A DNA stretch of 64,000 nucleotides from assembly GCF_057098645.1 (NCBI RefSeq), contig NZ_JBXSPU010000003.1; one strand, given 5' to 3'. This DNA is from a plasmid. Position 1 is the stretch's first letter. Every line of letters begins with the position of its first letter. Positions 52,601 to 58,600 of this stretch are shown one piece after another. Position numbers: made by a program.

Positions 52601-55600
52601 CTTTGGTTTCCAGATAGCGGACGGACTGGCCATTCTGCAACGCGCCTTCAGCAGCCGTACCATCGGTCTCCGGTAGTGCGATTTCAGTGACATTACCGCC
52701 ACAATGCTCTGCCACAACACGCCCCAGATCTTCCATCAGGGCGCGATGTTTTTCTGGGGAATCCAGCTCGCCCAGTAATTCTGGTTTTACCAGTAATGCA
52801 GTAATAATTGTTGCCAGTTCACGCGTCGAAATTAATTTAGCCATGATAGTCCCCTTTTCTCTGATGAATTAATTCTACCAGTTCTAGTTTGCTGGCTAAT
52901 AACCTGAAAGAAAGTTTTTTAAAATATACTCGCCCCATAAGTTAGGGGCGAAAAATGGGGGTAAATAATAATGACGGATTTTGAATTAATAAATCAGTAG
53001 GCGGCTTTCAATAATAATCCAGGGCGTCCGTAGGTATACTGGTCAGAGGGCGAAATACTGAAATCATGATTAAGGGAGTCGGTTGAAAGAACCAGACCAC
53101 CGTGAGCTGCCCGGATGTGCAGAACTGAAGGATCAGTGTCACCCGCATTAACGTGGACAGAGGGAACTCCATTTTCAATCAAGAGTGTCAGGGCCATCAC
53201 CAGACGGGAATCTGTATCTTTTACTGCCAGCATGGCATGACCACCGAGCGCCATTGTGACGTTAAACTCTGCTGAAGAATCGGTCTGCTCAACATCGTCG
53301 GTGCTGTACTCACACATCCGTACCACCTGTACTGGCAGATTAGCATGGCTGGTTTCTTCCTGAAGGAGCAGACGCTGGAGGGTGTAGCGGCGTACAGCGC
53401 ACTCTTTGTGGGTCGGCAGTTCATCAGGGCTTTCTTCGACACTGCCTTTGATATGGTCAAGCCAGCCATCCCGGGCATGATGACGCCAGACGTTATCTGT
53501 GAGGGAGTGCATGTCCTGGCCAGGAGAGACAACAATATAAGGGGTTTCATCTGGAGATGTCAGGTAATCGGCCTGGCTGTCTTCATCGCGTACCTCAGGC
53601 ATGATCACGCCGTCAATTTGACCGCCGCAATGTTTCGCCACCAGCTCGCCGATGTCCTGCATAAATGCTTTATGCGTGGCTGGTGTTTTTAATTCATTCA
53701 ATAATGCTGGTTGCACCAGTAATCCACAAACAATTTCCGCAAGCTCGGCAGGTAACAAATATTTTGGCATGGTTAGTTCTCCTCTTTTTGAATGAGAACA
53801 CTCTAGCATTTTGACTTACTTTTCTAATAAGTTGACGACAGGTATTTTTTTAAAAAAATATCCCCTGAATTTATATTAAAAGCCAGACTGCATTAATCCT
53901 GGAAAAGTAACTTTTCTCAGGGCTTCACGGGAGGGCATTACCCGTTATGCCCTCACCACAACTGAATCACTTGAACAAAAACGTGTAGATGTCCATTTCA
54001 ACAGCTACCTGAACGCCGGTGTTCTTTGACCCAGGCAGTTCCCGAAAGCCTCTAACCGTCTGGGAGTGCGCCAGCGATACCTGCGGATGAGACGGGTTTT
54101 GTAGACGGGGACGAGCGATACAGCCGGAAGACGAACAGGCTCCGGTGTTTCAGCTTGCGAGTGCCGCGATCCTGAGGCACCAGTAGATGCCTGCGTTTTC
54201 CAGATTAAAGCGGCATCACGCCGCTGTGCCACCCCCCGGAACTGCGTTAGACCGTGCGTGTTATACATGTCAGCCATATGGACTGTTTCGGCAACCGGAA
54301 GTAAAGCATCATTAAGGTGACGGACAGGCATTCCCTGAGCCGTATCACGCTGCTGTTATACCTTAAAACGGATAAATACTTAAGCATCGCTACTCAAATG
54401 AGTGAAAAGCAATCACTTTTATTGTGATGCAATAAATGCCTCATTAGGATTTGTTTCGTTCTTTGTAAACAGATAATTCTGAAAATACCCTCCATTAAAA
54501 TTGAATCCTGCATATATAAATCATCTCAATCATCCTTCCTGATTTATTTTCAAAAAACGTTCGTTCAGGTTATTAGCCAGCGAGGCCAATCTGTCATTAT
54601 TACTTCAGACCAAACCTGAGGAATCAAAAATGGATAAATACTTTGACCGTAGCGGAATGGCAATCGATAACGCTAAGATTAAGTGTATTGATTCAGTAAA
54701 AGGCACCGGGGAATATATTTACCGTGTTACTTGCAATAAATGCAATGGACGTGGCGAACGCAATCACTTTTATAAGAGCCGCTGTATTGCCTGTAATGCC
54801 ACTGGCTATAGCCTGGTCACTACCCGTACCTGTTACACCCTGACTGCACTGTATCGCATATACCCAGAAGCTGCTCGCAAGATCTCAGCCGCTCAGGCAG
54901 CAGAGCGTCAACGTGCTGTTCAATCAAAGACTTCCGCGTTCAACCTCTGGTGTCAGAACCACCAAGAACTGGTGGACGCCATCACGCAGCAAGACGGCGA
55001 GAACAGTTTTTTGAACAGCCTGAAGTCGACGTTATCACGCAAATTTCCATTAAGTGATAAACAACTGACGGTCGCAGCCAGAATCCTCGGGATGTAATAA
55101 ATTAGATTCAGGCTTTTTTAATTCTTATTTATTTAAACTCATTTCGTTACGGAGGAAAATATGATCCATTCATTTAAAGACAGGCGATTGGAAAAGTTTT
55201 TCCGTAATGGAAAATCCACGGCAGGCATTCCTGCTGAACTGATTAATGCGATTTCATGCAGACTGGAAACGTTAAATAATGTTAAAAACGAACGCGAATT
55301 GTTATCTGGTAGTTTGCGGTACGAACGCTTAAGAATGACCGCAAACCGGTATTCTTCCATTCGAGTTAATTCAAAATATCGGCTATTCTTTGAGTGGAAC
55401 GATGGCGTACATAACGTCCACCTGTCGGCGCATGATTATAAATCGCTCATCCATTAAGGTAAAAAATGAAACTTTTCGGTATTTCATCCCGGGATTCAGG
55501 CATGGATGCGATGTTTTATATTCAGGCCAGCACAAAACAACAGGCAAGCTTCATATTTGACTTCCTCGCCACCCGGCTGTATGCGCATTGCCAGCTTATT

Positions 55601-58600
55601 GAACCTCTGAATGAAACCATCATTCCCTCCTTAAGTCGGACGACGCTTTCATTACAGCCCTGGTCCCAGAACTCCCAGACCCGGACGAGTGAGATGCAGA
55701 TGGTTACGCACGGTCTGACACTCTCCGGGGCAGTGATGGTGGAGCACTCCCGCCAGATCGTCGACTTCTGCGATAACCTGGGTCTTCGCCTTGATGCTCC
55801 CACCGGAAAACCCGGTTGGACAGAACTGATCAATGCCGACTGCGAACAACTCAATTCCCCGCGTCTATACCCCGTCCTGATCCAACCGGGCACTGAAGGA
55901 CAGTTTCAGATTTATGTTCCAGCTCCGGCTGTCATTGACGCCGATACGGTCATTGCCAGTGTGATCGACGAGTGTTTTAGCGATGTTACCTCGTACTGCT
56001 TGGCCGGTACGCCGTTTCCAATGACGGAGAAACCAGTGATCCGCATGGAGGCACACCTTAGTGACGCACATACCCGGGTTTTTGAGCTGACATTCATCAG
56101 CTATAACCTGGCGCTCTCTGCCACGGTCTATGACAAAAACCTGCGCCAGGTACTGATGTTATGTGAAGACTTTGGCGTCACTCTTCAGGGGCGAGCCGGT
56201 GCATCCTGTCATGCCTATATGCGTAACGAGTACCGACGTCTTGCTCATGTCGGCGTCTACTCACGCTCCGGGGCTGAAAATGATGTTCGCGCCTACAGCT
56301 CAGATAAAGAGGAAACCCTGATCCGCCAGTTGATGACTCAGGCGACAGCGGGGAGCGCGTTGATTCCGGCGCGGCACGGAAAGCAATTTAACGGCGTGCT
56401 GATGAATGCCAACCCGTCATCAGCCACCACTGGCTTTATCTACCTGTCACCGGAATTCCCGCAAGGGCAGTTTATGATGACGGCGGAAGTTGTGAAATCC
56501 AGTTGCACGCCACGGGGGATCAGCTACATCGAAACGGTGGACGGATACCGTTTTATTGTGACGGCATATGACACGAAGGCGATGCATTCCCTGACCGAAT
56601 TTCTTGCTGTTAACGAGGACTATTTTACCCCTTATCGCTGGGAGTAGCGCCATCGTGCCGGACGACTAAGGAGGGCATCCGGGAAAGGCGATTTTACGCT
56701 AGGTGCGGGGCATTGAATCTGCGGTAAAACAGACCGGTTCTATTTTAATACCCGATCACCGTAGCCAGCTGCTGCCCAGGTAGGATGTAAGAGCAGACCG
56801 GTATAAACGATACGGGATCAAGGCAGGGCAACCGGGAAAAGTAACTTTTCAGCCAGACCATGCCTTCACAGGAATTGGCGTAATTCTCCGGCGGGGCATT
56901 ATCAGTTTTTTTTAATAAACTGTCCGGGCAATGGATGCCCGGTAATTCAGCGCCCTGCCAATTTGCACATTAAATACCCTGATTAATAATAATTAAAATA
57001 GGCCGAGTCAGTTTAAATAATTAATATTCATTCCATATGAAAGAAACTTCAATGAATGAAAAAATCACTTCTTACTTATTAGCCAGAGAGCCGACTTTGG
57101 TAAAATATCCCTACAGCAACCCAACTGACGGTCGAGGTTAATAGTATGGAATCCGAACAGCTCATTACTAAAATTACTCAGACACTGAAACGCCCCGACG
57201 GCTCTGAAGTACGTATTGTGGTGGAGCAGGCATTCGGCAGTGGCCTCACGCCTTCGCTGGGTGTATATGTCCTGCGTCGCCCGACCATTGCCGACAACTG
57301 GCAGTTGTGCAAAACCGCACCGCACAAGGACTGGCGCACTATGTCGGTGGATGAATACCAGAAACACGGGCGTTCGGAAATGCTTCGGTACGTCTCCATC
57401 GGCGAAATCCTTCGCCTGAGCGCCGCGATCGGCAAACCAATGAGCTACGTTGATACCTGTCCGGGTTTACAGGGCTGATGCTGTTTTTTACACGTAGCAG
57501 AACTGACAAATTTAAAAATTGAAGGCGGAGAAAAATGATGATTAACGAACAGGGCATCGCTGTAAATACCCCGGACTTAAGCCGACTGTATATTATCTCA
57601 GGCCGCATGATGTTTGATGATGAGGAAGAGGTGATGCTGGTCGAAGCGGACTCCTGCGGTGAAGCTGAAGCGGCATTCCAGCAACATATCGACGAAGGTG
57701 TAGCGCACTTGGATCAGGTGCTTGTTATTTCGTCTGCGTCCCTACAATCACTGTTACCAGACAGGCTCATTGCTTCCTCCCTGACACATACCGTATAACC
57801 AAATCTTTCCCGTCTAATAAATTCCGCCCTTGTGGCGGTTTTTTGTTTTCCCGTATATTTATTTTACACCGTATCCAGAATAAAAGTTGGATTATTAAAT
57901 ATGGCGCTGTCTGCTCTATAAAAATTTCGAACATATTTCATTATTGGTTATTAGGTGCAGGTATCTGTTTTGATATTATCTATTCACAGACAGTAATCAC
58001 ATTTAATTAAATAAGGAGTTATGCAATGGCGAACAATTACACTCAGGCATCCTTCACAATTCTCTGTTCACAGGAACAGGCACAGATGGCACTGGACGCG
58101 ATTGCGTATGTTACAGACACGGATGTGGCGGAAGGTGAACACTTGCTGTCTAAACCGGTTTCAGAGTGTTCCCTCACTGAATTGCTTGTCCTGGGTATTA
58201 TTCAGAACCACCCGGAGTGCGATCCGTTTGAGCCGACTTTTGGTCAGTCGGAGTCACCAGAAGACAATTACGAGCTGGAACTCAAAGCGGAAATCACCGG
58301 TAAAGGCCTGGCAATCTGCCATGATGAAAGCATTAACCTCGACCACGCTATCGCGGTAACAACTGCCGTGTTGTCGGTGTTTAACCTGCCTGAGATGGTC
58401 ACAATCAATGCCGCTTTCGTCTGCGACCGACCACGCGAAAACGAGTTCGGCGGTGCGACTATTGTGGTGACTAAAGATACACACCACTACGAAGAAGGCT
58501 TTAATTTTTCTCGCCTGATGAACGAAGCTCATGATGCCGGTGTTCAGTATGCGTTGGTGAAAGTGAACCAGTACAACCACGAATACACATACACTCAATG

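Follow-up and report, generated by a model that had tools for sequence, protein, structure and literature searches.

IncHI1 and IncHI2 plasmids rank among the main vehicles of multidrug resistance, and at positions 54630–56647 of the window (the whole 64,000-nucleotide plasmid stretch analysed here) a HigB-like toxin gene is coupled to a gene encoding a 393-aa protein. Does this large protein take the part of HigA, and how does the toxin fit with its two neighbours? In papers on these plasmids, the cassette is listed as "higB/higA" from annotation alone (PMC8092524), and the large protein appears in public records as 'flavin reductase' or 'hypothetical'; the labels "higB/higA" and flavin reductase are wrong or unsupported. 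An earlier note had proposed a non-canonical toxin–antitoxin (TA) or toxin-plus-large-partner module. The HigB toxin, the large partner lacking a helix-turn-helix (HTH), the conserved coupling and the absence of a HigA all stand; the partner may neutralise HigB.

Organization of the cassette

The cassette consists of three co-directional genes on the plus strand, encoding a 155-aa Zn-ribbon protein with a CxxCxGxG motif (54630–55097), the 98-aa HigB-like toxin (55161–55457) and the 393-aa partner protein (55466–56647). The window belongs to the IncHI1 backbone and is identical to the complete 218-kb plasmid pHCM1, in which the trio lies approximately 35 kb away from the mobI/MobH relaxase region. 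The trio is set in a long series of small hypothetical genes, all in one direction, among which are orphan methylases and a PAPS-reductase-family gene. All three ORFs are real genes rather than chance ORFs, because dN is much lower than the saturated dS across six lineages, indicating purifying selection on each; between the window and IncHI2, dN is 0.06, 0.25 and 0.29 for HigB, the Zn-ribbon protein and the large protein, respectively, at a dS of 1.6–2.3. None of the three proteins matches any PADLOC-DB v2 family at E ≤ 1.

A long intergenic region (53810–54629, plus strand) separates the Zn-ribbon gene from a divergently transcribed 271-aa gene. No ORF in this region matches a family, its inverted repeats are all short, and a consensus scan of it found no convincing sigma-70 site; it is presumed to be the promoter region of the three-gene operon. 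The 63-nt spacer between the Zn-ribbon gene and higB (55098–55160, plus strand) carries a GGAGG Shine–Dalgarno sequence for higB at 55151–55155. In relatives, this spacer measures 27–54 nt and GGAG(G) is kept ahead of the ATG in all, situated inside a longer TTACGGAGG motif in all relatives except L002. Judged from the nucleotide sequence, the length and variability of the spacer argue against an obvious separate regulated promoter, and the two genes are thus probably co-transcribed. The 8-nt spacer between higB and the partner gene (55458–55465, plus strand) is much shorter, and an AAGG Shine–Dalgarno sequence at 55456–55459 overlaps the higB stop codon, which suggests translational coupling of the 393-aa gene. 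Across relatives, this second spacer is 8–15 nt and purine-rich, with Shine–Dalgarno-like motifs. The adjacency, the coupling and the length of 393 aa described in the earlier note are correct, but the gap to the next ATG is 8 nt rather than 9.

The HigB-like toxin

The assignment of the 98-aa ORF to the HigB family, made at first from the sequence alone, is borne out by profile search. The protein matches PF05015 of the RelE/ParE superfamily as a single domain (E = 3.8e-16, model positions 2–90 of 91), PHROG 3066 (E = 1.8e-18) and the HigB structure 4mct in the PDB (E = 3e-5). Among the three genes, higB is the most conserved and under the strongest purifying selection in the six lineages. 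The window HigB and canonical HigA-paired plasmid HigBs have in common a core motif, RYE.L...YSSIRVN.KYRLFF.W.DG...L.AHDYK, together with R68, R74, H91, Y93 and a basic residue at position 94. In Rts1 HigB, the catalytic residues are His54, Asp90, Tyr91 and His92 (PMC5027501). Two of these are kept here as Asp92 and Tyr93, whereas His54 is replaced by Glu55 and His92 by Lys94 or the terminal His98. Canonical HigA-paired enterobacterial plasmid HigBs likewise show Glu at the first of these positions and a basic residue at the second; the Glu at the Rts1 His54 position is hence a deviation typical of the subfamily. By homology, HigB would act as a ribosome-dependent mRNA endonuclease.

In PF05015 modules, the toxin gene comes first, followed by the antitoxin gene (PMC11980606). 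Plasmid HigBs at 35–39% identity carry a canonical HigA immediately downstream, in the slot held here by the 393-aa gene. With positive controls passed, a HigA profile search detected no ORF resembling HigA in either the 64-kb window or all 218 kb of pHCM1, and none of the small antisense or overlapping ORFs has a family match.

The 393-aa partner protein

Across lineages, the large ORF begins with a conserved MKLF, so that the PGAP internal start at Met13 is a miscall. The protein has no family match in Pfam (even at E ≤ 10), NCBIfam, PADLOC or PHROG, and a profile search of PDB sequences gave nothing below E = 0.47. No HTH was detected by profile search and no HTH domain is present in the predicted structure, in agreement with the first reading of this ORF. 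The protein contains an internal duplication, in which residues 59–128 (55640–55849, plus strand) align with residues 189–245 (56030–56200, plus strand) by hhalign, with a probability of 96.6% and E = 4.8e-10. The duplicated module has a beta-beta-beta-alpha arrangement, and the N-terminal part is modelled only moderately (pLDDT 66).

The C-terminal domain (residues ~284–393; 56315–56644, plus strand) is the most conserved part of the protein. It is modelled with a pLDDT of 96 as a helix, six beta-strands and two helices, represents an uncharacterised domain family, and has no relative among solved structures. On other plasmids, the same domain also exists alone as a protein of its own, with no toxin in the vicinity, and therefore the core function of the 393-aa protein may be unrelated to HigB. 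The family is spread over plasmids of Enterobacteriaceae, Vibrio and Teredinibacter and proteins of Pseudomonas/Stutzerimonas; on Vibrio plasmids, the stand-alone homologues lie in similar gene arrays and adjoin orphan DNA methyltransferases.

The Zn-ribbon protein

The gene reported 63 bp upstream of higB is indeed separated from it by 63 nt, and its product carries the exact CxxCxGxG motif once (C35–G42). A degenerate copy, C52IAC55NATG (C52–G59), follows, and the C-terminal half is helical. Matches to DnaJ families are faint: PF00684 (DnaJ_CXXCXGXG) is reached only below the Pfam threshold (E = 0.018–0.064), and the NCBIfam DnaJ model at E = 0.001, far below its cut-off. A precomputed PF00684 match exists in one homologue (P0070), with a faint one in another (L006). 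The protein also matches PHROG 4046, of unknown function, at E = 5e-8, and shows no similarity to any antitoxin family in NCBIfam, PADLOC, PHROG and Pfam searches. The family is narrow, comprising 16 clusters, all from Enterobacteriaceae. Its gene precedes higB in each of the six IncHI-type lineages, and the sister HigB clade of Klebsiella plasmids lacks it; frameshifted variants occur in P0062, P0072 and L020.

Conservation and distribution

The order of the Zn-ribbon, HigB and ~393-aa genes and the short higB–partner spacer are kept in six diverged lineages, in which the large protein falls to 31% identity. Meanwhile, the flanks are reshuffled: a DUF4165 Ig-like gene lies upstream in some lineages and downstream in others, and the position of the methylase varies. 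Since the trio order persists while the flanks rearrange, the coupling is not accidental. In PLSDB, the cassette is present on about 1,300 of 72,556 plasmids, and the plasmid counts for higB and the large gene agree in each identity band (212/212, 61/61 and 1024/1025); all occurrences fall within one plasmid super-family, so these counts are non-independent evidence that partly reflects simple linkage in a conserved backbone. Among the carriers are pHCM1 of S. Typhi, tet(X)-named plasmids and IncHI2 plasmids that feature in the mcr-1 literature.

Antitoxins typically evolve much faster than their toxins. Across lineages, identity is 57–90% for HigB and 31–62% for the large protein, with the Zn-ribbon protein evolving at an intermediate rate. 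The partner thus diverges much faster than HigB, a point in favour of an antitoxin role.

Natural variants

Among natural variants, the large gene has suffered eight independent disruptions with higB intact; an intact higB can therefore persist on a plasmid without the full-length 393-aa protein. Seven of the eight retain ~119 or more residues from the partner N-terminus, and one retains 30. The latter, plasmid pYLMB165, bears an insertion of ISVsa5 (IS10-type) that duplicates a 9-bp target site (55547–55555) at codons 28–30 of the large ORF, leaving only 30 native N-terminal codons, with higB and the DNA upstream of it at 100% identity. The element is oriented such that its outward promoter would read into the remainder of the partner gene, where the next start is Met77. 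Residues 77–119 are consequently the only partner segment possibly present in all eight variants.

Both variants with a broken higB also have a broken large gene, and both lose the first ~100 residues of the partner. The Zn-ribbon gene is intact in nearly all variants with a broken large gene; L020, in which an assembly error is possible, has frameshifts in both the Zn-ribbon and large genes with higB intact. The disruption rate per kb is similar for the large gene (8 events in 1179 nt) and higB (2 in 294 nt), and the variant pattern falls short of significance (Fisher p about 0.07, for a cut-off set only once the data had been seen).

Explanations of the cassette

The explanation that accounts best for these observations is a non-canonical type II TA system on the IncHI backbone, in which the N-terminal/middle part of the partner neutralises HigB; it is held tentatively, with slightly less than even confidence. 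The translationally coupled 393-aa protein, in the place of HigA, would neutralise HigB via direct binding. The HigB-binding part would lie in the N-terminal/middle region, most economically in the beta-beta-beta-alpha module around residues 77–128, and the C-terminal domain would be a separable add-on, perhaps for sensing or for an independent function in plasmid establishment. The Zn-ribbon protein, probably co-transcribed, may provide the DNA-binding or regulatory function missing from the partner. Such a system may confer plasmid addiction through post-segregational growth arrest, abortive defence or both. Against a TA reading, the partner lacks a DNA-binding domain and is four times as large as HigA. 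A further elaboration, rather improbable as a whole, is a three-component switch: a HigB RNase would be checked by a modular partner whose C-domain would sense a cue such as entry into a new host, host defence or phage, under a Zn-ribbon regulator, and conditional release of the toxin would serve plasmid establishment or abortive defence rather than plain addiction.

Several other readings compete with this TA cassette. HigB may be domesticated or silent (weakly toxic, tightly silenced or directed at another target) within an establishment or anti-defence block, with an independent role for the 393-aa protein, above all its C-terminal domain, at plasmid entry or in countering host defences, and no need for neutralisation. 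This is unlikely overall, yet it draws on the disruption of the large gene beside an intact higB in at least eight independent lineages, the occasional frameshifts in the Zn-ribbon gene, the surrounding block with its orphan methylases and PAPS-reductase-family gene, and the methyltransferases beside stand-alone C-domain homologues on Vibrio plasmids; moreover, plasmid leading-region anti-defence islands are reported to be enriched in TA genes and methylases (PMC11541004). However, the ~35 kb between the trio and the relaxase region of pHCM1 leaves leading-region status unproven, and PADLOC matches no known defence or anti-defence family. HigB, the most constrained of the three proteins, keeps the toxin core of its HigA-paired relatives, unrelated functions would not predict tight coupling and an invariant order, and the partner is broken too in both higB-broken variants. 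Also rather improbable is a reading in which HigB is in truth neutralised or regulated by the Zn-ribbon protein encoded upstream, in the antitoxin–toxin order of relBE, with the 393-aa protein as the third component of a tripartite system (sensor, chaperone-like factor or effector). The constant position of the Zn-ribbon gene 5' of higB in six of six IncHI-type lineages, its intermediate rate of co-evolution, its integrity in nearly all variants with a broken large gene, the probable co-transcription and the precedent of three-gene TA systems such as TAC (PMC11980606) are all consistent with it. It is opposed by the toxin-first order of PF05015 modules, the Klebsiella sister clade without the gene, a distance to higB of 27–63 nt that is neither overlapping nor coupled, the existing Zn-gene frameshifts (with an intact higB in L020) and the lack of resemblance to antitoxin families.

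Chance adjacency, by which three unrelated genes travel together only through the conserved IncHI backbone, is quite improbable: every occurrence does lie in one plasmid super-family, yet the trio order and the 8–15 nt spacer persist among reshuffled flanks. Least credible is a flavin reductase merely adjoining an orphan toxin gene, which can hardly be correct. Automatic product names (RefSeq/UniProt) are all that speaks for it; against them stand the empty Pfam, NCBIfam and PDB sequence searches, and neither the C-domain model nor the full-length model matches a flavin-reductase or FMN-binding split-barrel fold.

Should the 393-aa protein prove to be an antitoxin, it would represent a new type of antitoxin and could contribute to the maintenance of plasmids of clinical importance. 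Otherwise, these plasmids bear an apparently competent HigB without a recognisable antidote, which itself needs explanation. The C-terminal domain, a confidently modelled fold family of no known function, is of separate interest.

Comparison with known systems

PF05015 HigB toxins are known to contribute to plasmid maintenance (PMC11980606). Like Rts1 higBA of Proteus vulgaris and other PF05015 HigB-like/HigA modules, the cassette is plasmid-borne, with a PF05015 toxin gene first and its partner immediately downstream. Unlike Rts1 higBA, the partner has 393 aa, no XRE-type HTH and no HigA similarity, and a Zn-ribbon gene is added upstream. The canonical pairs of RCS37_pI, pIso00199_02 and pRHB22-C23_3, to which the 35–39% identity refers, have the same orientation and a short spacer to the downstream gene, and their HigBs share a nearly identical core, (R/N)(F/Y)E.L...YSSIRVN..YRL.F.W..G...H(D/K)Y(R/K). 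Their downstream gene, however, encodes a 102–118 aa 'HigA family addiction module antitoxin'. TAC HigB–HigA–SecB systems are likewise three-gene operons around a HigB-type toxin (PMC11980606), but here none of the three proteins matches HigA or a SecB-like chaperone, and the third gene is an upstream Zn-ribbon gene.

The closest outside HigB clade, at 41–44% identity, is that of Klebsiella MOBH/IncHI1B-type plasmids (e.g., PittNDM01 p1). It shares the MIHSF... N-terminus, the SSIRV.SKYRL.F.W core and the setting of large MOBH conjugative plasmids, whereas its toxin has an insertion and no DY(K) C-terminus. There too, HigB is followed at 10–11 nt by a non-HigA 'hypothetical' gene; the downstream genes (105–111 aa, then an apparent membrane protein of 124–129 aa) bear no relation to the 393-aa protein and have no Pfam match. 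Partner swapping at the antitoxin position is a known TA property (PMC10440598), and the non-HigA gene downstream of the Klebsiella HigB fits such swapping in that clade. Partner-swapped type II pairs of the NetFlax-type 'hyperpromiscuous' networks similarly pair a known toxin family with an unrelated protein at the site of the antitoxin. Unlike those pairs, the partner here is unusually large, multidomain and mostly dispensable in natural variants; as in those networks, two related HigB clades have different partners.

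Organization of the three-gene locus

The locus consists of three genes on the plus strand, which by ORF reading encode a 155-aa zinc-ribbon protein (54630-55097), a 98-aa HigB-like protein (55161-55457) and a 393-aa partner, the large protein (55466-56647). The earlier note had placed 63 nt between the zinc-ribbon gene and higB, which is the measured spacing, with a GGAGG at 55151-55155; the HigB sequence blocks that it named are indeed found in the 98-aa ORF. Its claim of close coupling between higB and the partner also holds, the gap being 8 nt instead of 9 bp and an AAGG lying over the higB stop codon, while the CxxCxGxG motif that it read in the zinc-ribbon protein occurs once exactly and a second time in degenerate form. 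Neither consensus scans for promoters and terminators nor an Rfam search at the locus was informative.

By database comparison, upward of 100 large plasmids of E. coli carry the 2.6-kb trio region at 100% identity, and its proteins are identical to their counterparts in the IncHI1 plasmid pHCM1 of S. Typhi CT18. The remainder of the window is IncHI1 backbone, including trh/htd transfer genes, ParAB, ParM, two RepB-family (RepHI1-type) initiators and Ig-like RSP-type genes. Divergent from the trio lie two paralogous hypothetical genes (52068-52844 and 52994-53809, minus strand) encoding 258 and 271 aa, with a mutual identity of 32% (E=3e-42) and no family match; similar genes of ~250-265 aa also lie upstream of the trio in two homologous loci, L003 and L016. 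The latter, on the Enterobacter hormaechei chromosome (CP077392.1, 3.73-3.74 Mb), holds an integrated IncHI-type block containing the paralogous pair, the zinc-ribbon gene, HigB and a truncated partner.

Conserved coupling across lineages

The same gene order is observed in five further lineages, with a zinc-ribbon protein of 156-169 aa, a 98-aa HigB and a partner of ~391-396 aa preceded by a spacer of 8-15 nt, the large protein sharing 62, 56, 52, 40 and 31% identity with that of the window. Around the trio, a DUF4165 Ig-like gene, an Mrr_N-methylase gene and other neighbours shift position between lineages. In PLSDB, the numbers of occurrences of the two genes, higB and the partner, agree within each identity band: 212/212 (IncHI1 allele), 61/61 (intermediates) and 1024/1025 (IncHI2 allele). 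These counts measure cassette stability, not independent association, because all belong to one plasmid super-family; coupling is better supported by the gene order, which is conserved although the flanks are shuffled.

HigB toxin

The match of the 98-aa protein to PF05015 (HigB-like_toxin; E=3.8e-16) runs from end to end. The protein also matches PHROG 3066 ('toxin of TA system') and Rts1 HigB, whose structure is solved, and PGAP names it 'type II toxin-antitoxin system RelE/ParE family toxin'. In Rts1 HigB, His54, Asp90, Tyr91 and His92 are required (PMC5027501). Asp92 and Tyr93 are kept in the 98-aa protein, with Glu55 in place of His54, and Lys94 or the terminal His98 in place of His92. 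The first impression of a degenerate active site was countered by alignment with three canonical, HigA-paired plasmid HigBs, which have the same Glu and a C-terminus of the form H(D/K)Y(R/K), and share with the IncHI clade the core RYE.L ... YSSIRVN.KYRLFF.W.DG ... AHDYK. Since the Glu, the C-terminus and the core are common to both, the 98-aa HigB looks like an ordinary, competent member of the HigA-paired plasmid HigB subfamily. It is also the best-conserved product of the trio, with 57-90% identity among six lineages and a dN between IncHI1 and IncHI2 of 0.06, compared with 0.25-0.29 for its trio neighbours.

Search for HigA and comparison with other HigB clades

The gene that follows each plasmid HigB of 35-39% identity encodes 102-118 aa and carries the annotation 'HigA family addiction module antitoxin'. 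A profile built from these HigAs recovered its controls at E<1e-47 and had no match in the 64-kb window, nor in a six-frame ORF set covering all 218 kb of pHCM1. At the trio locus itself, short ORFs in overlapping or antisense position had no family match. A hidden HigA is thereby rejected in all three search spaces; the earlier note had seen by eye no HTH in the ORF coupled to higB.

The nearest outside clade is formed by HigBs of Klebsiella MOBH/IncHI1B-type plasmids, with 41-44% identity to the trio HigB. As in the trio, a non-HigA gene lies 10-11 nt downstream of HigB (105-111 aa, without a match in Pfam, NCBIfam, PADLOC or PHROG); unlike in the trio, the downstream genes are unrelated to the 393-aa protein and no zinc-ribbon gene lies upstream. 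Given the different downstream genes in the two clades, this HigB branch appears to have exchanged its downstream partner at least twice, which fits the known promiscuity of TA partners. The Klebsiella cluster, which hundreds of plasmids from that genus carry, is possibly a further non-canonical HigB module. Its HigB, as seen in the loci L011 (2001-3044) and L012 (2001-3060), has 103 aa, an inserted RLRERERAG loop and an AHAHA C-terminus, and a third gene encodes a probable membrane protein of 124-129 aa with a hydrophobic N-terminus.

The large partner and its C-terminal domain

The 393-aa protein has no match in Pfam even at E<=10, nor in scans of NCBIfam, PADLOC and PHROG, and PDB sequence searches with profiles A1 and A2 gave chance-level matches only. 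A word-indexed search of 5.8 billion proteins returned 17 clusters, all enterobacterial, and an exhaustive profile search over 1.84 billion representatives gave only 41 matches. PGAP often starts the gene at the internal Met13 (381 aa); the 393-aa form is the real protein, because the upstream MKL(F/Y) start is kept in all diverged homologues.

The C-terminal domain (residues ~284-393) belongs to a new uncharacterised domain family, of which 20 members, each scanned against Pfam, NCBIfam, PADLOC and PHROG, gave no match. Stand-alone C-domain proteins are encoded within arrays of small co-directional hypothetical genes, adjoined by orphan DNA methyltransferases on Vibrio chagasii and V. campbellii plasmids; none was found in the phage collection. 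No HigB/RelE gene lies beside them, so the domain is probably a module with its own function, not one dedicated to HigB binding. A toxin link of the stand-alone proteins was rejected, their neighbours having no match to HigB or the zinc-ribbon protein. Nor did these neighbours match the large protein significantly, and their sole NCBIfam match was a weak one to a ParS-type antitoxin, several genes off.

Natural disruptions of the partner

In public assemblies, the large gene is broken beside an intact higB in at least eight independent events. In pYLMB165 (L015), ISVsa5 is inserted at codons 28-30 with a 9-bp target duplication (window 55547-55555), leaving 30 residues. The others retain ~119 residues (L028, frameshift near residue 112-120), 134 (L026, nonsense at codon 135 in at least eight contigs), 158 (pIncHI2-1502264, L014, IS903B), ~171 (L029, frameshift near residue 171), 179 (L027, IS91-family insertion), 205 (L016, a deletion on the E. 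hormaechei chromosome) and ~245 (L020, frameshift near residue 245). An intact higB can therefore be carried without the C-terminal two-thirds of the partner, a stretch that takes in the best-conserved domain.

Both variants with a broken higB also have a broken partner. The loci L018/L019 carry frameshifts at higB codon 13/14 and partner residue 97/98. In P0084, a 115-kb Salmonella contig, a single in-frame deletion joins HigB 1-93 to partner 335-393, removing the HigB C-terminal KSLIH together with partner residues 1-334. At least ~119 native N-terminal partner residues are kept in 7/8 of the higB-intact variants, pYLMB165 being the exception; the pattern is suggestive of N-terminal partner retention with an intact higB and is not significant (Fisher p about 0.07, with a threshold set after the fact). 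The first in-frame start in the remainder of the pYLMB165 large gene is Met77, and the IS10 outward promoter, given the transposase orientation, presumably reads into this remainder. If the Met77 fragment is made, residues 77-119, which lie within the first copy of a duplicated module (59-128; second copy 189-245), would be the only part of the partner that every higB-intact variant shares. Per kb, the large gene and higB are disrupted about equally often.

Interpretation of the trio

The most economical reading of the trio is a non-canonical type II TA-like operon; that it is one in which the partner neutralises HigB through its N-terminal or middle part is held tentatively, at somewhat below an even chance. 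HigB would act as a toxin that cleaves mRNA, and the 393-aa protein, translationally coupled to it, would stand in for HigA, with a C-terminal domain that is a separable extra; the zinc-ribbon protein would be a possible regulator. That HigB is instead silent or domesticated inside a plasmid-establishment or anti-defence gene block is unlikely. This reading gains plausibility from the orphan-methylase context of the trio and from a report that leading-region islands are enriched in TA genes and methylases (PMC11541004), whereas the trio is ~35 kb from the mobI/MobH relaxase region and the spacers flanking it contain no single long Frpo-like hairpin (folding z=-3.5 and -1.4).

A tripartite system with the zinc-ribbon protein as the neutraliser of HigB is rather doubtful; frameshifted zinc-ribbon variants exist, including L020 with higB intact, some of which are possibly assembly errors. 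Chance adjacency of the three genes is improbable in view of their conserved order. It is scarcely credible that the 393-aa protein is a real flavin reductase, although PGAP calls it either this or 'hypothetical'; the former name has spread through RefSeq and UniProt (e.g. WP_223417145.1 and V9SHG6_ECOLX) without profile or fold support.

A literature search found no functional study of the trio genes, and IncHI2 genome papers list 'higB/higA' from annotation (PMC8092524). The consulted passages of a recent RelE/ParE toxin survey describe PF05015 systems as placing the toxin gene first, with partners of the HigA type and some fusions, and mention no large partner of the 393-aa kind (PMC11980606). 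The trio is best described as a HigB toxin whose partner is new, large and multidomain, joined by an additional gene upstream. Its main importance lies in its presence on ~1,300 sequenced resistance plasmids and in the wrong labels that databases give it.

Flanking features

As ssDNA, the 500-nt spacer after the large gene (56648-57145) has a better fold than its shuffled controls (z=-3.5). Two repeats lie within it: a direct repeat of 24 nt (56672-56695 and 56825-48), whose core GGGCAxCCGGGAAA is found nowhere else in the window, and an imperfect inverted repeat of 23 nt (56727-49 / 56992-57014). Window ~44000-64000 (pHCM1 ~9.5-29 kb), together with pHCM1 211-218 kb and 1-24 kb, forms a ~30-kb block of mostly small co-directional hypothetical genes, all directed toward the mobI/MobH relaxase region. 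The block includes a Hok toxin, DUF905/DUF957/DUF3085 genes, HNH nucleases and a 791-aa PAPS-reductase-family gene (59502-61877); relatives also carry an Mrr_N-N6_N4 methylase. By analogy, the block looks like an island for plasmid establishment or anti-defence. Outside the window, pHCM1 152718-153518 is annotated as a Shedu immune nuclease family gene with IS elements on both sides, a plasmid-borne defence gene unrelated to the trio.
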